In this document: positions 4,500 to 56,260 of the stretch, piece after piece | Layout: the number at the start of each line of letters is the position of its first letter | Numbering within the stretch: position 1 is the first letter of the stretch | Assembly (NCBI GenBank): GCA_964016885.1 | Contig: OZ024749.1 | Coordinates: forward strand, 22,816,001 to 22,880,000 | Direction of reading: 5' to 3' | DNA length: 64,000 bases | DNA from: Eledone cirrhosa | Lineage: Eukaryota | Made by a program: the position numbers and the translations under genes | Notes under the pieces: generated by a model | Database searches by the model: none | Seen by the model: the letters and a program-made list of their open reading frames with translations, nothing else | What the model was told of the DNA's origin: nothing

Positions 4500-4535
<36 letters not shown>

Positions 4536-5544
4536 AAAAAGGGATGAAATCGAAAATGCAGCTGAAGTCTTATTTTTTTAAAAAATATATATATTTATTT
4601 GGTTCCTTTACCGGTTTCGCAGTTCTTCTGCTTTTAAAAAGGTGAGTTGAGATGGATGGTCTGTGGTTTTTCTCACATCTGGTTGGTCTCTAAATGTTAC
4701 TTGTTTTATATGGAAAAAGTGGCTCGAAAACCAGGTTTTTCGAGAAGTAATTTGATTGGTTTGTCAATAATTATAATAAATTTCGCGCCAGTTCGCGTTA
4801 CAATAGTTCTTCAAATAAGAGAGGGGGGGTTGTCACAGGTTGTTTTTTCATATATGAGTGTTTGAATTTCTTTTTACTTGAAAAAATGAGGCTCACGAAG
4901 GCTTTTTTTTGGTTGGTTATAAATAAAATTTGGCTGTCACGTGAACAAGTTTTCATTACATTTTTGCGCCCTTATTTGAAAAACTATTCTGTAGTCTTTA
5001 TAGTGAATGTTATGACAATGGAGAGATAGTGGTCAAGGGAAAAGGGATTGGGAGAAATGTTCTGGTTCAGTGAATATGGCCAGCTGTCAGAGTTCAGGTG
5101 TCAGAGTTCAGATTTTCTATTGAGACTGAAGATATGTGTTTATTTGTGTGCTTGTGTGTATATGTGTGTGTGTGTGTGTGTATGTGTGTATTGGAAGATG
5201 ATTCTATTAGTAGAGATGGGGGAGGGAGTTGTGTGTGTGTGTATATGGGTGTTATGTGTGTGTGTGCGAGTATGTTAGATAGAGAGAATATATATTTTGT
5301 GTGTGTGTATATATATATGTGTGTAGGAAAGTGGTTCTATTAGTAGACATGGGGAGGGTGTTGTAGGTGTGGGGGTTGTTATGTGTGTGTATGGGTGTTA
5401 TGTGTGTGGGAGTATGGTTAGCATGTTAAGATGAAGAGAATATATATATATATATATATTGTGTGTGTGTGTATGTGTGTGTGTGTATGTGTGTGTGTAG
5501 GAAAATGATTCCTTTAGTAGGAATATTTTTGAATATTTTTGAAT

Positions 5545-7787
5545 CGGCACAAACCGATTTTGAAAAACCGAAAATAATTAACATTTCAAATACAAACCTC
5601 TCAGCCCAACAAGTAAAAATTCTCTCCAAAGGTCTGAAATTCACACCAACACCACAATATCCTAACCCCAACGAGATAAATGACGATATCTCACACTTCT
5701 GTAGAAAATTACGTCTCACAGAGGAATTCTTTGACAAGGAGAATAACGACGAATAAAAGCAGCTACAACCCAACAAAAGGTAGAAACAGAGTTCTGGACA
5801 AATTTTGTGACCACATAGCTACCTTTCCATACCATGAACTACCGCAACCTAAACCCAAACCCAACACAAGTCGAAGGGAATGGGAGATTATCCATGAACT
5901 AAAAAACAATCCGGACATTGTAATTAAGGAAGCGGACAAGGGAAGTACTGTTGTCATTATGGAGGCTGAAAAATATAAAAATTCTATGTTCTCTCTCTTA
6001 CAAAATGCTAATTACTATGAAAGAGTAAAAAACTACCAGCAATCAAACATAATGACCAAATTAAACACACTGATTTATCGATACCAGGAAGACCTAACTA
6101 AAAAGGAACGCGATTATTTAACAAATTTTGAATACAAAACCAGCAACCTTTACGGACTTCCGAAGATCCACAAATGTAAAATAATCAACGATGCCTGTAA
6201 ACAATCCACCTCAGCCTGCGTGAACACACAATACCCCTCAGACCTTAAATTAAGACCAATTGTAGCGGGCCCACAATGTGAAACACACAGATTGAGCAAC
6301 TTTATAGACATACTACTGAAACCAATACTGAAACACATACCAAGCCTTGTAAGAGACGATCTGGACCTCTTAAACCACCTCCCCAAACATGTCAACAACG
6401 ACACTATTATTGTGTCTTTCGATGTAGTGAATCTCTACACAACGATCCCACACCAATACGGACTAGAAGCAATAGGATTCTGGCTAGAGAAATATCCCAA
6501 TGAGATACCTGACAGAATAGAAAAAAGCTTCATCACCGAGGGATTAAAATTCATCCTACAGAACAACTTTTTTGATTTCGATGGCAATACTTACAAGCAA
6601 ATATCGGGGACTGCGATGGGCACAAAAGCCGCTCCAACTTATGCCAACTTAGTCATGGCATACTTAGAAGTCCAGATATATGAACAGTCCAAATCAAAAT
6701 ACGGATTGAACTTCCACAAATATTTATCAGAGAATTGGAAACGCTACTTGGATGATTGCCTCATTCTTTGGTCTCACACACTCGACCAACTGAAGGATTT
6801 CAAAAACTTAATAAACGGCATCAATAACCACATCCAATTCACAATGGAATACAGCCAAGATTAACTCCCATTTCTGGATATCTTAATCACAAAAAAAGAC
6901 ACAAATATCGAAACAGACATACACTACAAACCAACAGATTCCAAACAATATCTGCTATTCACCCCCAACCATCCAAAGCACACGAAGACGAACATTCCTT
7001 TTAACCTAGCAAGAAGAATTTGCACAATTGTCTCCAATTATGAAACGCGAAATAAAAGACTTCAAGAATTAAAGGAAATTCTACTTGAGAGAGAGTACCC
7101 ACTATTACTAATAAATAATGGAATAGAAAGGGCTAAAGCAATAGGCATTGATGAATTACGGAAACAGAAACAAATTCAAGGTACGTCCAATATTCTATCA
7201 TATATCTCAACACACAACCCAAGAAATGTGGAAGCTTACAACACTATTCACTATAACATCCCACTACTAAAACAAAACCCAAGAATGAAAAAAGCCCTTG
7301 AAACACACAAAATAATCAAAAGCAAAAGACAACCAAAATCACTGAAAACATTACTCACCAATGCCAAATTACCTACCACAAACCCACAACCAAGTATCAA
7401 AAAATGTGGTCGCTCTAATTGTGGAACCTGCACTCACCTCATTGAAGGCAACACGTATACATTTAAATCAGGACAAAATTTTACTGTAAAAAATCACTTC
7501 ACTTGCTCATCAAAAAATCTAGTTTATACCATTAAATGTAAAGGATGCAATGAAGATTATATAGGACAAACTAAACTCACACTCAGAAACAGAATGACAG
7601 TTCATCGCCAACAATTACGAGATCCAACCACGAGACAGATACCACTAAGTGCCTATCAAGTAATAAGACACCCACATTCCAAGTCTTCCCATTTTACCTT
7701 TGCGCTAACAATACAACAGAACAAATGCGAATAAATAAGGAAAATATGTTTATTCAAAAATATAGACCAACATTAAATAAGGTTTAA
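5545..7787 (+). pseudogene. Penelope RT + GIY-YIG endonuclease ORF, 5'-truncated and disrupted
   Basis: Motifs NLS..L.KGLKF.P, EADKG, YGLPKIHK, LRPIV, SFDVVNLYT, GTAMGT, RYLDD, LPFLD, Cys-rich linker CGRSNCGTC, NLVY..C..C...YIGQT and terminal KE.MFI.KY.P.LN. Frameshift ~5750, in-frame TAA at 6862-6864, deletion/frameshift ~7655. Confidence 0.93.
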
Positions 7788-8814
7788 TATACATTATGTC
7801 AACACCACAATATGACATACACTCACACACATAACACCTTCTACTTTAGAAAATAAAAACCCGAACTAAATAAACCTTAAACATACGTTTGCACTGGCAA
7901 TACAACAGCAAACACGAAAAAGTCAGGAAAGTTCATTCAAAAATATTCCTACTAAAGGAATCATTTTCCTACACACACACATACACACACACACAATATA
8001 TATATATATATATATTCTCTTCATCTTAACATGCTAACCATACTCCCACACACATAACACCCATACACACACATAACAACCCCCACACCTACAACACCCT
8101 CCCCATTTCTACTAATAGAACCACTTTCCTACACACATATATATATACACACACACAAAATATATATTCTCTCTATCTAACATACTCGCACACACACACA
8201 TAATACCCATATACACACACACACACAACTCCCTCCCCCATCTCTACTAATAGAATCATCTTCCAATACACACATACACACACACACACACACATATACA
8301 CACAAGCACACAAATAAACACATATCTTCAGTCTCAATAGAAAATCTGAACTCTGACACCTGAACTCTGACAGCTGGCCATATTCACTGAACCAGAACAT
8401 TTCTCCCAATCCCTTTTCCCTTGACCACTATCTCTCCATTGTCATAACATTCACTATAAAGACTACAGAATAGTTTTTCAAATAAGGGCGCAAAAATGTA
8501 ATGAAAACTTGTTCACGTGACAGCCAAATTTTATTTATAACCAACCAAAAAAAAGCCTTCGTGAGCCTCATTTTTTCAAGTAAAAAGAAATTCAAACACT
8601 CATATATGAAAAAACAACCTGTGACAACCCCCCCTCTCTTATTTGAAGAACTATTGTAACGCGAACTGGCGCGAAATTTATTATAATTATTGACAAACCA
8701 ATCAAATTACTTCTCGAAAAACCTGGTTTTCGAGCCACTTTTTCCATATAAAACAAGTAACATTTAGAGACCAACCAGATGTGAGAAAAACCACAGACCC
8801 TCCATCTCAACTCA

Positions 8815-8852
8815 CCTTTTGAAAAGCAGAAGAACTGCGAAACCGGTAAAGG
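8815..8852 (+). ncRNA. Minimal hammerhead ribozyme, U3-A8 variant, in Penelope pLTR
   Basis: cctt-TTGAAAA-gcag(aagaa)ctgc-GAAA-ccgg-TA-aagg. The mirror copy at 4605-4642(-) has G5>T. Confidence 0.7.
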
Positions 8853-8983
8853 AACCAAATAAATATATATATTTAAAAAAAAAATAAGACTTCAGCTGCA
8901 TTTTCGATTTCATCCCTTTTTCTTTATACTTTCACTCGTGTAGGACACCTCGGTTATTTTTCATTTTGTAAAAAAAACCTCAC

Positions 8984-9089
<106 letters not shown>

Positions 9090-9174: not shown

Positions 9175-9254
<80 letters not shown>

Positions 9255-9490
9255 TGCTACTGTACGTCTGTATACATATATGTATGTACGTATACATACA
9301 TACTTACATTTAAGTAAGTGCCGTATAAGAGTGAGAAATGAAATTTCGTTTTCATTTTATTTCAACTTATCGTTTTCGGTATGCCTGACCGACTTAACTC
9401 ACTCGTTATGCAAATTAGGCTGCTCAGCCGTTGATTTTCATAAGGAAAGTATATACTTTCGAACGTTCAACTATCTGGCAGAAGGGTATA

Positions 9491-9531
9491 CGGTGCTGAT
9501 GATAGCTAACAAGCTTGAAACTAGTACATCG
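9491..9531 (+). ncRNA. Minimal type-I hammerhead ribozyme
   Basis: cggtg-CTGATGA-t agct(aaca)agct t-GAAA-ctag-TA-catcg; palindromic stem III. Confidence 0.85.
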
Positions 9532-9749
9532 TTCCTGTGTCAGTGTTGAACAAAAAGATTACGTGGTTGCCTTAACAGCGTACGGCATAAATTCAGGCTG
9601 TTCAGTCTGTTTACAAACGAACAAAGCGGCGATATAATAAGCGTCCGCTAAACTGATACGTGCATATATGTATGTGTACCTGTATGTATATATATATATA
9701 TATATATTTCGTTTCTGAATTTATTGGCAACATGACCCTGCCAAATTAT

Positions 9750-9793
<44 letters not shown>

Positions 9794-10027
9794 TACTGTA
9801 CGTCTGTATACATATATGTATGTACGTATACATACATACTTACATTTAAGTAAGTGCCGTACTAAGAGTGAGAAATGAAATTTCGTTTTCATTTTATTTC
9901 AATTTATCGTTTTCGGTATGCCTGACCGACTTATCTCACTCGATATGCAAATTAGGCTGCTCAGCCGTTAATTTTCATAAGGAAAGTATATACTTTCGAA
10001 CGTTCAACTATCTGGCAGAAGGGTATA

Positions 10028-10068
10028 CGGTGCTGATGATAGCTAACAAGCTTGAAACTAGTACATCG
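10028..10068 (+). ncRNA. Minimal type-I hammerhead ribozyme (second unit)
   Basis: Identical to 9491-9531. Confidence 0.85.
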
Positions 10069-10219
10069 TTCCTGTGTCAGTGTTGAACAAAAAGGTGACG
10101 TGGTTGCCTTAACACCGTACGGCATAAATTCAGTCTGTTCAGTTTGTTTACAAACAAACAAAGCGGCGTTATAATAAGCGTCCGCTAAACTGATACGTGC
10201 ATATATGTATGTGTACCTC

Positions 10220-10319
<100 letters not shown>

Positions 10320-10431
10320 GGCTACTGTACGTCTGTATACATATATGTATGTACGTATACATACATACTTACATTTAAGTAAGTGCCGTACCAAGATTGA
10401 GAAATGAAATTTCGTTTTCATTTTATTTCAA

Positions 10432-10471
<40 letters not shown>

Positions 10472-11267: not shown

Positions 11268-11995
11268 TCTGTATATATATAAATCTGAAAATTTCTGTAT
11301 GTATGTGTATATGTGCGTCGACATTTTTTAATGAGGGCTCGTATATTCTAAACCATTCATGCGATTTCTTTGAAATTTTTTACAGAGCTTCTCCTTGTAC
11401 AAAACCTGTACATGATCTACAAAGGCATTCAAAAATCGATATTGGGGCCTTTGGAGCCATTAAAAAATTTCGGTTATTTGTGTGAATTTTCGTGATTAAG
11501 TAAGACAAGAGTTATCTTTCGTAATCAAGAGTTATCTTTCGTAATTTGGCTCATTCGGATTTTAATTTACTCTTTCTACTTGAAACAAAGAGAATAAGAA
11601 TATCATTTCGTATATTTCACAACCAGCAATTTCTAACAGATTACTAAGTTAAGTTATAGATTTGACATTGTATAATTTATCGTTTCATGATCTCATAACT
11701 TTTACAATATTATGCTTAAATTTATCTAAAGGATGGTTTATACATCAAAGACTTAGAATTATTCTATTTTTTCGCATTGATTAGACTACGTTTCTGACAC
11801 ATAATTTAATTATTAACTTATATACCCTGTACATATCCAACGTTCTACCGCTACATGTACTTCAAATACATTTTAAAATTAATCTTTATTTTTACATTCG
11901 ATGTTGTTATATCGTGTTTCTTCTATGTATTAAAATTTACTTTGTTTAGTTTAATGAGCTACTTGAACCGTCCAAAGGACGGGTAGTTTAGCTAG
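11268..11995 (+). mobile_element. Non-autonomous Helitron
   Basis: A|TC start (TCTGTATATATATAAA...gtatgtatgt), subterminal hairpin ccgtcc-aaa-ggacgg (11968-11982), CTAG|T end, no TSD. Confidence 0.8.
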
Positions 11996-12065
11996 TATAT
12001 ATATACATATATACAAGCTAAACTACCCATCCTTTGGACGGTTCAAGTAGCTTTCGATGTATATA

Positions 12066-12338
12066 TATTGTTATACTGAAGAGATCACAGAGTGTGTGAC
12101 GAAAGGACTATGACTATATATAAACAACTATCTGATTGTGGAACCAACCAACCAACCAGAAATTTATAAGTTTGTAGATTTGTAAATTTATAAATTTATA
12201 AATATATAATAAATTGAAGTGAACGCAACTGGTGCGTGTGTTTCTTATTGGCAACATGACCCTCCCAAAGTATAACAATATCGGTTTCAACAGACGATTT
12301 CAGATAAAGAATCTTGCTAAACAAATTCAGAAACGAAA
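12066..12338 (+). mobile_element. Short hammerhead-bearing PLE-like element with 12-nt 5' inversion
   Basis: CTGAAGA-g.tcaca/tgtgac-GAAA-ggac-TA-tgac at 12076-12114. The 5' tattgttatact is the reverse complement of 12269-12280. Homolog at ~18590-18852. Confidence 0.7.
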
Positions 12339-12399
12339 TATATATATATATATATATATAGTTAAAAGAATAGAGGTGTAACACACAAGTTATTATATA

Positions 12400-13004
12400 T
12401 TGGTAAACGGAATAGAAAATGCTGACAAATTGTTCACAGTTGAAAAATGGTTTAATTAGGAATAAAAGAGTATTAGTGATTGTATGGGTTAGTATTCAGT
12501 TGTGGTTTTAAGTTTTTTAAGTTTTTACCGGTTGCGCATTTCTAAATGCTTTTCAAAAATAATTTTGAGATAGAGTGTCCGTGCTGTTTGCTCTGATCTG
12601 ATTAGTTTTGGGAATTCTACCTGTTTTTATGTTAAAAAAGTGGCTCCACCGTTATTTTTGTGTTGCAAAAATGCTTGTGGTCAAAACAATTTTGATTGGT
12701 CGGTAGAGGTCATGTGAATGTAAAAAGTTGATTTTGCGCCAAGACTGTTTTTATGTTAAAAAAGTGGCTCCAGCAAAAATCTTGGTCAAAACAATTTTGA
12801 TTGGTCGGTAGAGGTCATGTGGATAAAAAATTGTTTTTGCGCCAAGATTGAGAAATGACTCTTTCACAACAAATATGTGTGTGTGTGTGTGTATGTGTGC
12901 GTGTGTGTGTATATGTGTGTGTGTGTGTGTAGTAGTAGTAGTAGTAAGGTGTTCGATGCTGCGACAATGGCCAGCAGCGATGTGTGTCAAATGGCTATTA
13001 AGAT

Positions 13005-13061
<57 letters not shown>

Positions 13062-13380
13062 GCAGAGTAATTCGATGGTCAGTAAGAATGTGTCTGAAAA
13101 TACTGGTCCATCCACACACACACACATATATACACAAATACTGGTCCACACACACACACACACACACACATATATACACAAATACTGGTCCACCCACACA
13201 CACACACATATATACACAAACACATACACACGCGTACATCAACATACAAAGAGACTTATACACACACACACACACACGCACTTCACCGTATAAGACAAAA
13301 GCTGAAAAATATCTTTTGACATGCTAAAATACCCCCCATTGCTTTCAGACACATTCTTACTGACCATCGAATTACTCTGC

Positions 13381-13451
<71 letters not shown>

Positions 13452-13520
13452 ATCTTAATAGCCATTTGACACACATCGCTGCTGGCCATTGTCGCAGCAT
13501 CGAACACCTTACTACTACTA

Positions 13521-13578
<58 letters not shown>

Positions 13579-14047
13579 TTGTTGTGAAAGAGTCATTTCT
13601 CAATCTTGGTGCAAAACCAATTTTTTATCCACATGACCTCTACCGACCAATCAAAATTGTTTTGACCAAGAATTTTTGCTGGAGCCACTTTTTTAACATA
13701 AAAACAGTCTTGGCGCAAAATCAACTTTTTACATTCACATGACCTCTACCGACCAATCAAAATTGTTTTGACCACAAGCATTTTTGCAACACAAAAATAA
13801 CGCTGGAGCCACTTTTTTAACATAAAAACAGGTAGAATTCCCAAAACTAATCAGATCAGAGCAAACAGCACGGACACTCTATCTCAAAATTATTTTTGAA
13901 AAGCATTTAGAAATGCGCAACCGGTAAAAACTTAAAAACTTAAAACCACAACTGAATACTAACCCATACAATCACTAATACTCTTTTATTCCTAATTAAA
14001 CCATTTTTCAACTGTGAACAATTTGTCAGCATTTTCTATTCCGTTTA

Positions 14048-14052
<5 letters not shown>
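12400..14052. mobile_element. Large fold-back (700-bp inverted arms, ~245-bp loop) of Penelope-related pLTR
   Basis: 12400-13099 is the reverse complement of 13343-14052. Shares accaatcaaa and gagccactttt..cata.aa blocks with the pLTR at ~8697-8755. Both arms carry a TTGAAAA/GCAA/ccgg/TA hammerhead variant (12522-12558 -, 13893-13930 +). Confidence 0.8.
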
Positions 14053-14113
<61 letters not shown>

Positions 14114-14160
14114 TATATATATATAATATAAGATCAAAAGATGGTTAAAGGAGTTCCATG

Positions 14161-14231
14161 TATTTTATTATGCGCATTTCAAAAACAAACATCATCATGC
14201 AATAATATTTGTGTTTTCATCAGATAAAACA
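14161..14231 (-). ncRNA. Type-I hammerhead ribozyme (mirror arm)
   Basis: Reverse complement of 14333-14403 with intact core. Confidence 0.88.
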
Positions 14232-14332
14232 GGAGAACATGATATGAAGGCTAAAGAACACTTGTGGATAGTGCAGTTTTAAATCAACTGCACTATCCAC
14301 AAGTGTTCTTTAGCCTTCATATCATGTTCTCC

Positions 14333-14403
14333 TGTTTTATCTGATGAAAAAACAAATATTATTGCATGATGATGTTTGTTTTTGAAATGCGCATAATAAA
14401 ATA
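14333..14403 (+). ncRNA. Type-I hammerhead ribozyme
   Basis: tgttttat-CTGATGA-aaaacaaatatta...tgatgtttgtttt-GAAA-tgcgca-TA-ataaaata. Confidence 0.9.
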
Positions 14404-14524
14404 CATAGGACTCCTTTAACCATCTTTTGATCTTATATTATGTATACTCCAGTCCTACAAACTGTAGAGTGCTTCTTATCCGATATCTGCATTGCTTTAT
14501 TGTACTACAATAAAACTCACCTCC

Positions 14525-14570
<46 letters not shown>

Positions 14571-22110: not shown

Positions 22111-22113
<3 letters not shown>

Positions 22114-22534
22114 GGAGGTGAGTTTTATTGTAGTACAATAAAGCAATGCAGATATCGGATAAGAAGCACTCTACAGTTTGTGGGACTGGAGTATGCATAA
22201 TATAAGATCAAAAGATGGTTAAAGGAGTTCAATATATTTTATTATGCGCATTTCAAAAACAAACATCATCAAACAATAATATTTGTGTTTTCATCAGATA
22301 AAACAGGAGAACATGATATGAAGGCTAAAAAAACACTTGTTGATAGTGCAGTTTTAAATCAACATATCATGTTGATTTAAAACTGCACTATCAACAAGTG
22401 TTTTTTTAGCCTTCATATCATGTTCTCCTGTTTTATCTGATGAAAACACAAATATTATTGTTTGATGATGTTTGTTTTTGAAATGCGCATAATAAAATAT
22501 ATTGAACTCCTTTAACCATCTTTTGATCTTATAT

Positions 22535-28641: not shown

Positions 28642-31355
28642 TATTTCTTTTATTTGCCACTAGGGCATCAAAAGTGGGACAAGTACAAAGGGGGGAGTTT
28701 ACACAAAAAGGCGTCCTCAATAAGGAGGAGGCAATAACAAAATATAAAAATAAAATAAGATATAACAAAAAATAAAATTTTTAACAAAATCCTCAATAGA
28801 GAGGAGGCGCCTTGGGGGGTCGCACACACCCCCGAAAAAAGTGTGCAACCCTACTCCTCAGGAGCACAGAGAAGGGGTGCTCCCTTGGTCTTTCATCTTC
28901 CTCACCTATAGTCTGATGTAGAGTGAAGGCCCATTCACACGGGCCATTCTCGCCACTTTCACCCATCTTTCATAGAAACGGCTGGGGTGCAGCACCTCTC
29001 TCTCCATCCTGATCCTTCTTCCGAAATGATATCGGAAGAAACGGACCAGTTGTTGGCCAGAGAGAAAGGTGCCCGACCTCAGTCCTTTCAGACGCGTCCA
29101 CCATACAACCTCTTTCGCCATGGCTATTACGCACAGAAACACCGCCTCTGCTTCATCTTTGAAGGGGGGAGGCGGCTTGATCATTACAATAGACTCGGTG
29201 GTCAACCGGATCGGTCCCACCCTTGACAGCAGTTGTTCGACATAGCCCCACAGATCGGCTACGCCCGAGCAGTGTACCAATGCGTGTGCAACGGTTTCCT
29301 CGTCGCACACGCATCTGGGACAGATCTTTTTGGCGGGGTCCCTACCCGGGCGCCCGTGTCTGTAGAGCCTTTCTCGAACGGGTAAAGCCCCTCGGTAGCA
29401 CTGCCAGGCCAGGGACTTCTGGAAGTTGTCCATAGGTCCCGGGCTGAATGTCCTACCGAACAGGCTGGCCAGTTCGTCCTCCTCCATGTCTAGGGCTTCT
29501 CCGAGGGCGTCGTCGCACCTGCTGCGTACCAGCCCTCTATAGAATGTTGCGGTGGAGTCTCCACTGATAACCGGATCCGCCTGCCAGAGGGCGGTGAGCG
29601 CCTGGGCACACTCAGTGTGCCAGGCGCCCAGTTTTCTCGGTCTTTGCTTGACCCAGGATTGCAGCTCGGTGAGTGAGACGAGTCTGGGAAAGGTTCGTCT
29701 CACAAACGAGGCCCACACCGGTTGTCCGGTGAGGAATACGTAGAGGTGCCGTAGCCTTAATGCGTGTTTACGCATCATTAGCCACGGCATCCCCAGCCCT
29801 CCTTTCGAAGGGTGTTGACAGCAGATGGATCTCCTCACCATAGGAGCCCGCCTCTTCCAAAGGAATTGGAAGAGCGCGCGCTCCATCTTGGTGAGGGTTT
29901 CCCTTGGGCAGGGCACTACGGTCAGGCGGTAGTAGATGACGGACGCTATGTAGGTGTTCGCCACCTCCGCCCGACCTTTCAGGGATAGTTTGCAACTGGC
30001 CCACTTCTGGGTCAGTGCAAACACCCTGTTCGTAACCTCCGCCCAGTTTTTCTCCACCTGGAGGTCCGGTCCGAACCAGACCCCGAGCAACTTCACCGGG
30101 CCCTCCGTCCAGCGTCCGACGACGCCATCGGAGGGCATCGGTCTGCCCCTCCACGTGCCGAGTTGCAAACCGATCGACTTGTCCCGGTTCAGCTTAGCCC
30201 CTGTGAACTTTTCGTACTCCTCCAGTAAGGTGCCGACCGCCTCGATTTCGGAGGCCGTCGACACCATTACTGTCACGTCATCGGCGTAGGCCGACACCGC
30301 TTTCCGCAATCCCGGTTCCAAAGGGATGCCCTGCAACAACTCCAACTTCCGCAGTAGTGGCTCGAGAGTCAACACATACAGAAGGGAGGAGAGAGGGCAC
30401 CCTTGTCGGATGGACCGCGCGATTTTGAACGGCTCCGAGAGGTAGCCGTTCACCTTGACCCTAGAGCAGATGCGGCTGCTGTGCATAGCAGTGATCCAGC
30501 CCCTGAAAACGGGTCCGAAGCCTGCCGCCGCTAGCACCGCATCCAGGTAACCATGGTCGACCCTATCGAACGCCTTAGATTGATCCAAGTTGATCAGAGC
30601 CCCACCAAAGCCGGGTTCGTTCCCAACCCTCTCTATGATGTATCGCATGAGGTGGAGGTTGTCATGGATGGACCTGGACGGGATAGCGCATGTCTGCGCA
30701 TCTCCCACCAGGTTGCCCACGACAAGCGCCAACCTCTTTGCTAGCACCTTGGCCAAAATCTGTAACTCTGTATTTAGCAGTGTTATGGGCCTGAAGTTAC
30801 TTATTTCGTCCCCCTTGTTCTCGTCCTTCCTCACTAGCGTGACTACGCCCTTGGTCACAGTACAGGGAATTCTCCCGTTCTGTTGCCAGTTGCAGTAGAC
30901 CGCCTCGAGGAGATCGGGGAACAAGTCCGGCATAGCTAGATATAATTCGTAAGGAAGACCATCGAGACCCGGGGATTTGCGTTTGCCGCATTGGCTCAGC
31001 ACGTCCTCTATCTCAGCGGCCGAAATCGGCTCCTCGCAGGACTTGGCCTCCCTGTCCGAGAGGCGCGGCAGGCCGTCGAGGTATGGACCGAAGTCCACGT
31101 TCCTAACCGGCTCCCCGCCCCTCCCGAACAGTCGGGCAAAGTGCCTTTGAAAGGCCTCACACATCTGCTTAGGCTCAAGAATCGCCCGTCCATCCAGGTC
31201 TCGCAAAGACCGGATGGTGGATTTAGTTCCACTGTTGGCCTCTGTCACGCGGGCCCAGCTAACAGCTTTGGTCCCCTCGTTCCCTAGAGCACGTATTTTA
31301 CTTCGGACAACGCAGCCTTCGTGCTTCGCGTCGAAAAACTGGCTCAAAGCCGTAT
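28642..31355 (-). mobile_element. Tx1/L1-clade LINE, 5'-truncated, with 15-bp TSD
   Basis: TSD ggggtatgatagata at 28627-28641 and 31356-31370. The 3' UTR ends gtggcaaataaaagaaat. GC-rich body. Confidence 0.93.
28906..31352 (-). CDS. Tx1/L1-type ORF2 (RT + C-terminal CCHC), lacking the N-terminal endonuclease
   Basis: Uninterrupted ~815 codons: KSPGLDG, FRPITLLN, LDQSKAFDRV, IRQGCPLS, YADD, CPRC...ETVAHALVHC. The ORF-track N-terminus (31353-31689) is read-through of microsatellite. Confidence 0.88.
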
Positions 31356-31442
31356 GGGGTATGATAGATAGATGGATTATCAGATAGATAGATGAATAGA
31401 GAGTTAGATAGATAGATAGAGGGATAGATAGATAGATAGATG

Positions 31443-31496
<54 letters not shown>

Positions 31497-31519
31497 CAAA
31501 TAGATAGACAAATAGATAA

Positions 31520-31770
31520 ATTTCTTTATTAGCCACAAGGTCACAAAAGAAGGGGACACATACAAATGGGAAGTTTACATACAGGTATATGAAAATAAAA
31601 CTATTAATAAAATAACAAATCACAATTGAAATCCCCAATAGGGGAGAGGCGTTACACAGGGGTTGTACGCACCCCGAAAAAATGTACAACCCTCATCTCC
31701 AGGAGCACCAAGAGTGAGTACTCCCTTTCTCTCTTACTCTTTCAACCTACAGGCTTATATAGAGAGAGGG
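31520..31770 (-). mobile_element. 3' UTR fragment of the same Tx1-like family
   Basis: ttctttattagccacaagg...ccccaataggg, adjacent to (GATA)n. Confidence 0.8.
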
Positions 31771-38512: not shown

Positions 38513-40122
38513 TTGTCCTTGCCCTGATGCCCCTGACCATTGTACTGTGAAAAGTGAGAGCAGGATACAGGTTGGGAAAGGGAGGGCTTACCATCAATCA
38601 CCTCCTCTTCATGGACGATCTTAAGCTCTTCGGGAAGAGTGAGAAGGAGTTGGATGTGCTTGTTGACACTGTCCATATTTTCAGCAATGATATATGTATG
38701 CAATTTGGTATTAGTAAGTGTGGAGTCATTGTGATGAGGAGGGGTAAGTTGAGCAGAAGTAACGGAATCCAGATACCAACAGGTGAGATGATAAAAGAAA
38801 TTGACTCTGAAGAAGGATACAAGTATTTGGGCGTTCTGGAGGCTGATGACATCAAGAACAAAAAAATGAAGGAATTGATAAGAACTGAATACCTTCGGAG
38901 AGTAAGGAGCGTATTAATGTCACATCTGAACAGTAGGAATGCCATAAGTTCAGTAAATTCCCGAGCTGTGTCTATTATTAGGTACAGTGTGGGAATTCTG
39001 AGATGGAATGTTGCTGAACAAAAAGAAATGGATAGGAAGACTAGGAAGCTATTGACTATCTACAATATGTTCCACAAGAGGAGTGATGTCGATAGACTCT
39101 ACTTAAGGAGATCTGAGAGTGGAAGAGGTCTTATCAGCATTGAGGACTGTGTTCAGATGGAGAAAAACAACCTACACAAATACGTGACTGATAGTAAGGA
39201 GCCAATGCTCAGAGCTGTACTGAAGGAGGGGACAATAGGCCAGGGGATGTCCAAGGAGGAAATAACATCAAGGAGAAAGAGCAGCCTTCAGGAAAAATCC
39301 CTTCATAGTACCTTCTTTGAGAAAACTGAATTTAGAGATCCACAGACATGGAACTGGTTGAAAAGAGGAGACCTTAAAAAGGCTACAGAAGTAATGTTAA
39401 TGGCTGCGCAGGAGCAGGCCCTCAAAACGAAGTGGTTGAAACACCACATTTACAAGGAGGAGGCTAGCCCACTGTGCAGGATCTGTGGAGAGAGAGAGGA
39501 GACTGTGGCTCACATTGTATCCGAGTGTAAACACCTAGCCCAGAGTCACTATAAGGGCTGCAGACATGATGTGATGGGCAGGGTGATCCACTGTCACCTG
39601 TGCAAAGTAAACAATTTACCACATTCTGAGAAGTGGTATGAGCATAAGCCAGAGGCGGTGATAGAAAACGATCAGGTGAAGGTGCTGTGGGATTTTAGGA
39701 TATAGACGGACAAGAAACTGGAACACAATAGACCTGACCTGGTGGTTTTGGACAAAGAAAACGATCGTGCCTGATTGTGGATGTGGCCTGCCCATTCGAC
39801 ACGAGAGTGCAAGAGAAGGAGAGGGAGAAAATTAACCGATACCATGACTTAAAGTGGGAGGTAAAAAGGATTTGGAACTGCCATGAAGTCAAAGTGATCC
39901 CGATTGTCATAGGCGCACTGGGGACTATCTCAAAAAGTTTCCAGGGATGGTTAAAGAAAATTGGCCCCTTCACGCTTTTTGGAACGCTTCAGAGGGCATA
40001 CTTGCTGGGAACAGCAAGAACCCTCCGATACGTCCTGAATATCTGAGGCTGCAGGTAGTGGCTTGACATTCATCTATACAAACTTTCCAGTTAACTAACA
40101 TCAATGACTGAGACTCAAAGAG
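38512..40122 (+). mobile_element. R4/Dong-clade LINE (RT C-half + CCHC + restriction-like endonuclease), 5'-truncated, in (TAA)n
   Basis: NHLLFMDDLKLF, YKYLG, CRICGEREETVAHIVSEC, RHD, WDFRI.TD...HNRPDLVV, DVACP, KINRYHDL, IPIVIGALG. Stop at 39703-39705 and frameshift ~39770. (TAA)n on both sides. Confidence 0.92.
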
Positions 40123-45815: not shown

Positions 45816-45963
45816 TATGTATGTCCACCACTCTGCCTCACACCATTGGAACTCTTTCCCTGCCCACTTTTTTCCCGATGAAGGGCTTATGCCCGAAACG
45901 TCGTCCCTCACCCCACACTCTCAAGCGTGACCCTAATACTAAAACTGTTTGTACTGCCATATT

Positions 45964-46017
<54 letters not shown>

Positions 46018-46174
46018 TAGCTTTGGTAAAGTACCTGGTGGACCATGCCCACTAGTGTGCTCGATACTTGGGGTAGTAAAGTGGGTTCTAATACTGGTGG
46101 CTTAGTTCAGATCTAGCTGTCGAAACGGCCGGAGCTCAACCGTCAGGGTCCCGAATCTTTTCATATATATATCA

Positions 46175-46523: not shown

Positions 46524-47889
46524 CTATCTAATTTTAAAAGGTTTAACTCACATCACAGATTTCTCCTCAGTGAAAGACTATCGGAAATAGCCTTAACACC
46601 TTCTAGCTATACATCTATCAAATACATAGTTCAGTGCAGAGAGACAATTATTTAGTTCGGTAAGTAATTAAGGTGTTAAATTACTTAGAAAATTACCCCA
46701 CTTACTTTCCTTCTCCCTCTTTTAATGAACATTCAGCTGTTCTCTAATTAAATGCAGCAGAATATCATCCATGTGTAAGGTGGAGAAAAAAAAAATGTCT
46801 AAACCTACAACAGAAAAAAAAATTCATAAACCTACAACAATTTCACCTACAGTTAAAAGAAAGTTCCTTTAAAAGAAAATTAAAATTTTAAAATAAGCAA
46901 CAAATGTAATTTTCCTTGAAATTAATTGTCAATTTCTAAGAATTATCTAACCTGGCTCCTACATATTTGAGCGCAATAAATATTTGCAGCTAGGTTTGTT
47001 TTCTGCAACTAAGAGGAAAATTTCTACCAATTTATTTGTGTGTAAATGTACATGTTTGGGGTATTTTTATAGAGGTGATTATATTTATAGTATAGAGCGG
47101 TTAATTACGCGTCATCAAATGATATTTGTAGTTCTTTCATCCACCCAAACCAAACAGTGAGTATGTTTTACAATATACTTCTGGCAATGCTACACCAGCA
47201 TGACCCTCACCAAATATAACAATATTTGTTTAAGCACACAATTTCATATAAAAAAATCTTACAAAACAGATTCATTGCCGTCACATATATATTCTTCACA
47301 TTTCTTTCATGTATAGAGGCTGTCTATATTGTGTTTCTGCATCTAGTTCTATTGCATTGTATATGTTGTGACATACAGCGTATTCAGTGTACAATAATAT
47401 TTCGTATGGAAACAATTGTAGAGTTACCCTAAGGAACACACTCTTCACATTTGTTGACTCCATCTAACACTTATTTCTGTCAACCGGCCCTACTGTGCAT
47501 TTAGAAACAATTAGATGTAACACATGTACAGTTGCCACACCCAGGGAAACTCCGACGACAAACAACTCCAAACATAATGTAGGGTTGTAGTATTTTAGAG
47601 TAGCACAATTATACTAACATTTTATATATACTTTGCCTTTCAACCTTACGGAGTCGATAAAATAAAGTACAAGTAATACACAGGTAATTGCTGGCCTTGT
47701 GCCTAATGTAGAAACAATTATATATATATATATACCGAAGGAGGTGTGGTAAGAACCAGATTGACCATAACGCACCAGAGTACTCAATACTTAGGGTAGT
47801 AGAGTGGATAATAGGAAAAGGTTTGACCCCGACGGCAGAGCTCAAGCCGTTTCAACGGCTTGATCTCTGCCGTCAGGGTTAAACATTTT

Positions 47890-47952
<63 letters not shown>

Positions 47953-51027: not shown

Positions 51028-51030
<3 letters not shown>

Positions 51031-51436
51031 GAGGTTATATTTAATTTGTTGTGATTCAACAAGTTTAAAAAAAAATTATAACTGATATAAAGCACTTAAC
51101 AGTTTAGTGGAGTAAATATACAATATATTAATAAATGGGAACTATATTTATAAAACCATAATTATTTTATTATATATATTTCAAGGGCGACCAAGGTAAA
51201 TTATGGTGCGCTTTCATCAGATAATATACAGATTTGTTTTATAAATAAATATTGACATACCCGGAAAAAAGACAACCTCAACGGTTGAAATTCGCTGGAT
51301 AGTCCATTTATAAAACAAATATGTATTTTATCTGATTAAAGCGCACCATAATTTACCTTGGTCGCCCTTGAAATATATATAATAAAATAATTATGGTTTT
51401 ATAAATATAGTTTCCATTTATTAATATATTGTATTA
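51028..51436 (-). mobile_element. Palindromic hammerhead element (family of 42865-43273)
   Basis: Tail on the left. Intact hammerhead 51163-51228(-); mirror 51324-51389(+) has CTGATTA. Degenerate copy at 50029-50192. Confidence 0.85.
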
Positions 51437-51440
51437 TATA

Positions 51441-51510
<70 letters not shown>

Positions 51511-52903: not shown

Positions 52904-52987
<84 letters not shown>

Positions 52988-53099
52988 AGAAGAGTCAGGG
53001 CCGCGACGGCTGAGCACCGGCCATTTCGACAGCTAGTTCTGGACTCGCTGTCGAAACGGTCGGAGCTCAGCCGTCGGTGTCCTACCTCTTTTCCTATTA

Positions 53100-56026: not shown

Positions 56027-56029
<3 letters not shown>

Positions 56030-56258
56030 CACCGTAATTTTGACTAAAGGAATTTTAGCCTGATAATGGGGTTTAGACCCCTCAGATAAATGGAAAAAGG
56101 TGAATATTCATCAGGTGTACGTCAATACTCATCTTTTTCCATTTATCTGAGGGTTCTAAACCCCATTATCAGGCTAAAATCCCTTTAGTCAAAATTACGG
56201 TGAAAGCTATTCTATTTTCTAATTTCAAACCTGCTCACTGTTTCAAAACATACTTACT

Positions 56259-56260
<2 letters not shown>
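56027..56260 (+). mobile_element. Fold-back element with 3' tail in (TA)n
   Basis: ~75-bp inverted arms 56027-56102 and 56130-56205 plus a 55-nt tail. No hammerhead core recognised. Confidence 0.7.

Follow-up and report, generated by a model that had tools for sequence, protein, structure and literature searches.

A 46-nt insert in a (TA)n tract of the Eledone cirrhosa genome is a minimal product of a (TA)n-targeting Penelope-like retrotransposon, probably formed by priming from both cut target strands on one RNA at two sites, here termed A and B. For Penelope-like elements of at least two clades, the evidence leans slightly toward programmed twin priming by an asymmetric complex on one RNA as the normal route of insertion. 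The insert lies in a window of 64,000 nt (the whole stretch of DNA that was analysed), to which all unsigned coordinates below refer.

Make-up of the insert

The insert and a longer copy, the 12066 copy, are composed as listed below. Site A was set at position 12277 (upstream) and site B at 12337 (downstream).

9683..9707, no strand: left (TA)n target tract
9708..9722, minus strand: B arm of the insert, the reversed final 15 nt of the 60-nt tail; its last 2 nt are common to the A arm
9721..9753, plus strand: A arm of the insert, 33 nt, terminating at site A (nucleotide 22 of the ORF, end of the pLTR)
9754..9791, no strand: right (TA)n target tract
12069..12077, minus strand: inverted A arm of the 12066 copy, 9 nt, with a 3-nt overlap with the forward arm
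12075..12337, plus strand: forward B arm of the 12066 copy, 263 nt, comprising a truncated pLTR, site A (12277) and the tail (12278-12337), followed by (TA)n

Positions 9707-9722 are the exact reverse complement of 12323-12338 (16 nt, the sole match within the window), and 9721-9753 align with 12245-12277 over 33 nt with 2 mismatches. The first-pass annotation had described an inverted tail end joined to a sense copy of the 12245 region; this structure is confirmed, while the size it gave, 50 bp, becomes 46 nt (9708-9753, central overlap 2 nt) net of (TA)n-like bases. It had also traced the inversion of the 12066 copy to the same site, which the 9-nt reversed piece starting from A bears out, although the distance of about 58 nt has to be corrected to the 60 nt that separate A from B in this copy.

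The insert occupies the TA tract of a tandem repeat unit present in about 2.3 copies (9253-10433), and the paralogous tract of the next unit, at 10220-10316, is empty. A near-perfect hairpin of 96 nt with a TA-rich centre (11957-12052) adjoins the 12066 copy.

Identity of the element family

The insert belongs to a very abundant (TA)n-targeting Penelope-like element: the 19-mer adjoining A on its upstream side matches the 3.0-Gb genome exactly 30,067 times, against 0 for the control. Sites A and B are nucleotides 22 and 82 of the element ORF, both are followed by ATATC, and they are respectively the pLTR end and the tail end of a canonical Penelope-like element. The ORF of one copy (L145) is frameshifted and gave a weak Pfam RVT_1 match below the cut-off (E 9e-4), together with BLASTP matches to the RT and GIY-YIG ORFs of the window (E 3e-9 and 8e-7); its Atlas neighbours carry GIY-YIG and RVT_1, at 0.96. 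A single ORF with RT and, at its C terminus, a GIY-YIG endonuclease, as in EN+ Penelope-like elements, was found, as were the partial tandem pLTR, the inverted truncated copy and the tail overlapping the ORF start that mark this group. Furthermore, the L145 ORF contains the motifs CIDKKCITC and IRCTEGQC, and hence both a CX2-5CxxC linker before the GIY-YIG domain and two cysteines in the GIY-YIG core, which are the marks of Neptune and Nematis (PMC8557442). The family is a Penelope-like element whose linker is of the Neptune/Nematis type.

Hammerhead-like core motifs were seen by eye near 12076-12110, and these motifs together with a stem II are visible on folding (z -1.1); Rfam scans returned neither a hammerhead nor any other credible family. 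Folding around the tail gave only weak structure (z -1.2) and no RNA structure marking A and B, and a search for a solved structure of a close relative found none. As the insertions sit in (TA)n, a target-site duplication would be invisible.

Two fixed end sites

The ends of the arms were tabulated from two anchors. The first was the 19-mer at -95, for which the first 100 matches along contig C1 were taken: 48 arms end at A, 49 at B and 2 elsewhere, and 1 reads through (97/100 at A or B). Since this anchor is blind to ends further upstream, the count was repeated with an anchor at -367, which has 6,725 matches; among the first 100 of these, 26 of them inside the region of the first sample, 45 arms end at A and 48 at B (93/100); of the others, 2 have their end upstream of A, 1 within the tail, and 4 show read-through. 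The start points of inversion, which the first-pass annotation had proposed to be fixed, are therefore non-random and fall at two sites. Ends at A and at B followed by (AT)n also occur in short-read contigs of two runs, one possibly from the assembly's own sample and the other from a different organism.

Two details of the earlier proposal are not supported as worded. The internal site had been thought to be defined by its TA-richness, but longer TA runs at -222 and -135 in the element are almost unused as ends, which rules out TA homology as the sole determinant. The other priming site had been placed at the RNA 3' end, whereas B lies at nucleotide 82 of the ORF, and tandem copies read through it. 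In a few cases (L303 and L126, which are one insertion, and L135 at 1206-1262), arms end 11 nt short of B, passing into (TA)n; a third start site of minor use may be responsible, or else a subfamily whose tail is shorter.

Pairing of A with B

Inverted insertions join one site with the other, as had been suggested from the window. Short insertions were searched for genome-wide with equivalent patterns for each pair type and a gap of 0-30 nt, giving at least 515 A+B insertions, 2 A+A loci, no B+B and no match to the control pattern; the members of this class measure 29-50 nt, and their halves do not overlap. For the longer class, 123 loci were examined, and both outer ends could be called in 64 insertions, of which 63 are A+B (one of them also among the 515), 1 is B+B and none is A+A. 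The strict end test missed L339, an A+B insertion, and L360, whose left arm begins about 85 nt past B. The B+B exceptions are L335 and a single triplicated event (L005-L007), the latter drawn from a similarity search biased to tailed copies, and in L107/L294 A is paired with an end near -135. For 30 of the 97 arms ending at A or B in the -95 sample, and for 29 arms in the -367 sample, no partner was found. Among two-armed insertions, A+B pairing is near-obligate.

The same excess could arise if ends were chosen independently, or if both were B and later trimmed, with like-with-like products lost through selection, instability or assembly, given that A+A and B+B products would be perfect palindromes continuous with their (TA)n flanks. 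Against such a loss, stems as long as 1.6 kb have been retained in A+B insertions, the rare A+A and B+B copies are assembled intact, and both ends followed by (AT)n are found in short-read contigs, including those of another organism; this is the least probable of the explanations considered here.

The pairing extends to a second family, termed H here and 'family A' in the first-pass annotation. It has a Hydra-type CxCX5C linker (CNCPDRSTC in L184) and a 79-nt tail, and with this linker, the lack of the CCHH core pair and its (TA)n target it shows the marks of the Hydra clade as defined in PMC8557442. Junction matches are similarly numerous genome-wide for the two sites (8,068 A ends and 8,911 B ends). 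Thirty matches selected for A yielded a B partner in 23, an A partner in 2 (one insertion) and no partner in 5; thirty selected for B yielded an A partner in 17, a B partner in 2 (one insertion), 2 unclear cases and 9 without a partner above threshold. In total, 38 of 40 insertions are A+B, with 1 A+A and 1 B+B (two insertions occur in both sets). Of its members in the window, three are listed here:

46012..46163: diverged family H member, reversed tail arm and forward A arm with a short filler
47735..47891: family H insertion, reversed B arm (79-nt tail, through A) and forward A arm
52986..53099: family H insertion, both arms beginning at site A

The first of these had been described as having non-overlapping halves, and its diverged tail arm and A arm indeed show no clear overlap. 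The second, annotated at 47735-47893, uses the same site as claimed, but its halves overlap by about 45 nt. The third (52985-53098) had been cited for the same site as the second; it is A+A, an exception to the pairing rule. In the family H copies L154-L243, a very frequent stopping point of both arms lies next to a hammerhead-like motif, 45-60 nt upstream of A, which suggests an RNA 5' end or a strong RT stop there.

Arm geometry and junctions

In 47 simple longer insertions the arms overlap; the A arm reaches further upstream in 19 and the B arm in 24, and the two lie within 5 nt of each other in 4, which are almost symmetric hairpins. B arms consisting of tail only are found in the short class and in L091 and L104. 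The A arm is the longer in 8 of 23 younger and 11 of 24 older insertions, and asymmetry is flat against the age proxy (Spearman -0.01), although the A arm is not the longer one in any of the 8 youngest insertions (p=0.12 for the age difference overall).

These figures bear on an explanation with a single primer, in which cDNA primed at B uses itself as template after folding back, and the resulting second strand, ended at A by a cut or a stop, is linked to the target; the hairpin, being unstable, would later suffer deletions that give rise to unequal arms and to the short class. Such a course would account for the A+B pairing of B-primed events and agrees with the 4 near-symmetric hairpins out of 47 and with the 0/8 among the youngest insertions; Craig et al. 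moreover ascribe the tail to endonuclease resolution of an intermediate (PMC8557442). However, fold-back places the A arm inside the B arm at birth, so that 19 of the 47 insertions must have undergone secondary deletion, amounting on the B side to as much as 1.7 kb, and so must every one of the 515 short insertions; the flat relation of asymmetry to age (8/23 younger, 11/24 older) speaks against it. In addition, direct priming at both tail boundaries has been observed in vitro (PMC11167929). Self-copying by fold-back is accordingly regarded as rather unlikely, although it is the strongest rival to priming by both target strands, which is preferred.

The central junctions of the short class were compared in 31 loci, which reduce to 27 events after removal of 4 likely duplicates. 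The mean overlap is 2.7 nt, a value reached in 0 of 100,000 resamples, against 0.67 expected; this fits annealing of cDNA ends, and it fits deletion, and thus fold-back, too. A one-off chance join is ruled out as the source of the insert by the 515 copies and by 14 distinct junctions among the 27 events. A self-copying mini-element is likewise ruled out for the short class, because the junctions vary.

Evidence for a single RNA template

In the three informative edited insertions, both arms trace to one RNA. Clusters of A-to-G changes on the sense strand are the expected mark of A-to-I RNA editing. The arms of L135, which lie in opposite genomic orientation, carry the same sense-strand A-to-G cluster (16 rare changes shared), and an edited stretch of 55 nt occurs exactly twice in 3.0 Gb, once per arm. 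A looser search for editing gave 27 matches, including three heavily edited insertions with overlapping arms (L135, L145 and L260), and all three share edits between their arms, about 15 A-to-G changes being common to both in L260. The short B arm of L145 agrees throughout with the edited upstream pLTR (302 of 302 positions), while it differs from the 3' pLTR, where the A arm begins, at 33 of 247; the two start sites consequently need not share a repeat unit. Wider fetches at seven further loci from the editing search yielded no more heavily edited overlapping pairs. Rare variants point the same way, being common to both arms at 5.5 per kb, against 0.45 per kb in mismatched arms, and in 15 of 17 pairs the two arms resemble each other more than they do the median other arm.

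Dual priming from two RNA molecules, one per protein subunit and primed at A and at B respectively, would dispense with strand displacement for overlapping arms, and a dimer has been predicted for PAc (PMC11167929); L145 can be read as A-primed cDNA jumping to a second RNA, and a few arm pairs differ at selected sites. These are weakly marked picks in which the selected G's lie in one arm only (L256, L259, L267) or in which two changes are shared and one is different (L271), and they may be later mutations picked by the search. Edits common to both arms in the three heavily edited insertions disfavour two RNAs, and since the L135 pattern is found nowhere else in the genome, inheritance from a donor locus is unlikely; dual priming is considered highly improbable. 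Shared edits fit fold-back equally well, although in L145 the second arm would then have to pass A and stop at B.

Dense sense-strand A-to-G changes are found in rare copies (L135, L145, L260, L265, L275 and L277), reaching 120 in L265. In most of these copies the changes sit upstream of about -150 and leave the 130 nt around A and B free; a protein on the RNA could have left such a footprint. In L275 editing comes closer to A. One arm of L275 (10-118) has sense-strand T-to-C changes instead, as if it derived from an edited antisense transcript.

Proposed mechanism

In the preferred model of two primers on one RNA, the endonuclease would nick both (TA)n strands, and each target 3' end would pair with the ATAT that follows A or B in the RNA. 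The strands would be allotted to A and B, one each, by a complex of protein and RNA, probably a dimer, whose two RT sites are not equivalent. The two RTs would then stop independently of each other, the B-primed one displacing the A-primed cDNA once it has passed 60 nt, and the two cDNA 3' ends would anneal through 2-4 nt before fill-in. Very early RT stops would give the 29-50 nt class, longer runs an inverted pLTR with a tail on one end, and loss or failure of one arm the single-armed copies. The use of both target strands as primers is suggested by the arm geometry, its in vitro counterpart being limited to PAc.

Relation to known systems

For PAc, the Poseidon element of Anolis, both strands are nicked and extended in vitro, reverse transcription begins from two internal positions on the RNA, which lie inside the ORF start and delimit the tail, and hammerhead cleavage is not needed (PMC11167929). 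Sites A and B likewise bound the tail. Two observations of Frangieh et al. count against the model: in bulk they detected no difference between strands in start site, and their start sites lack homology to the target (PMC11167929), whereas here a match of 4 nt exists, ATAT following both A and B. The main text of that paper does not pair the start sites on one target and leaves inverted insertions unexplained (PMC11167929).

The canonical EN+ unit consists of a pLTR, an adjacent inverted 5'-truncated copy and an optional tail (PMC3846280, PMC8557442). The tail has been described as optional on one inverted pLTR (Arkhipova 2013, PMC3846280), and as often present at one end of a structure with an inverted truncated copy, the mechanism being left open (Craig 2021, PMC8557442). 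In contrast to these units, whose tail measures 30-40 nt, the tail is here 60 nt, and 79 nt in family H; insertions with two arms carry it on one side in a near-obligate manner, and they include a class of 29-50 nt in which the halves do not overlap. In the sections consulted, neither PMC3846280 nor PMC8557442 offers counts of pairing, and both treat the origin of the inverted structures as unresolved.

Twin and dual priming of L1, in which two target strands prime two cDNAs, likewise generate inverted fragments (Meyer 2010, PMC2837659), and in L1 twin priming both cDNAs come from one RNA (PMC2837659). The latter trait is shared by 3/3 informative edited insertions here, which fold-back would also fit. 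The first L1 primer acts at the poly(A) 3' end, whereas no poly(A) is involved here and B is ORF nucleotide 82, and the second site is fixed in the Penelope-like insertions. L1 fragments that do not overlap and enclose an internal deletion are matched by the 515 short insertions, but not by the 47 simple longer ones. Because most arms overlap, the two primers do not divide the RNA between them in the way known from L1 twin priming, contrary to what the first-pass annotation implied. Furthermore, either arm can be the longer, and inverted insertion is the common route here and a side reaction in L1. General background is provided by PMC2377424, PMC8969392, bioRxiv 2024.12.14.628481 and bioRxiv 2026.07.22.740005.

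The tail, the inverted ends and two in vitro start sites are already published, and with the element type and the one-sided tail known, the surprise is limited. New points are how strongly A is paired with B in two families, a minimal class whose halves do not overlap, and the evidence for a single RNA. The literature searched, mostly without subscription papers and with two key reviews outside it, contained no pairing rule, twin-priming model or editing tag for Penelope-like elements, and neither pairing counts nor a non-overlapping minimal class. The origin of tandem and inverted Penelope-like ends is named as an open question by Craig 2021 (PMC8557442), and the PAc study leaves the steps after priming unvalidated (PMC11167929); a near-obligate A+B rule on one RNA makes this question directly testable in the existing PAc assay. 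If programmed twin priming is true, with a different start site for each target strand, this one rule would account for the micro-insertions as well as for the inverted pLTR and its one-sided tail, and marks of A-to-I editing would serve as its natural single-molecule barcode. Target priming would then make both junctions, and the far end would need no conventional second-strand step, a point of importance for understanding this telomerase-related RT class and for its use in gene insertion.

Other insertions in the window

Apart from family H, Penelope-like coding sequence within window insertions was found for one element only:

4533..8989, plus strand: unrelated near-full-length Penelope-like element, RT 5680-6864, GIY-YIG 6865-7734

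This element has a stop between RT and GIY-YIG, a CX4CxxC linker and inverted ends that are long and nested, only one of which bears a tail (about 66 nt); a tailed arm of its family also flanks L106. Extra sequence on one arm only likewise characterizes the inverted insertions at 12361-14050, 14126-14527, 22111-22534, 47735-47891, 51028-51448 and 56028-56260, as well as 4533-8989 itself. A separate short insert at 45870-45910 shows a minimal hammerhead-like motif by eye, with no Rfam match at the gathering score. LINE-type RT fragments with RVT_1 and zf-RVT matches, unrelated to the finding, are located at 28906-31692 (minus strand) and 38551-39705 (plus strand).
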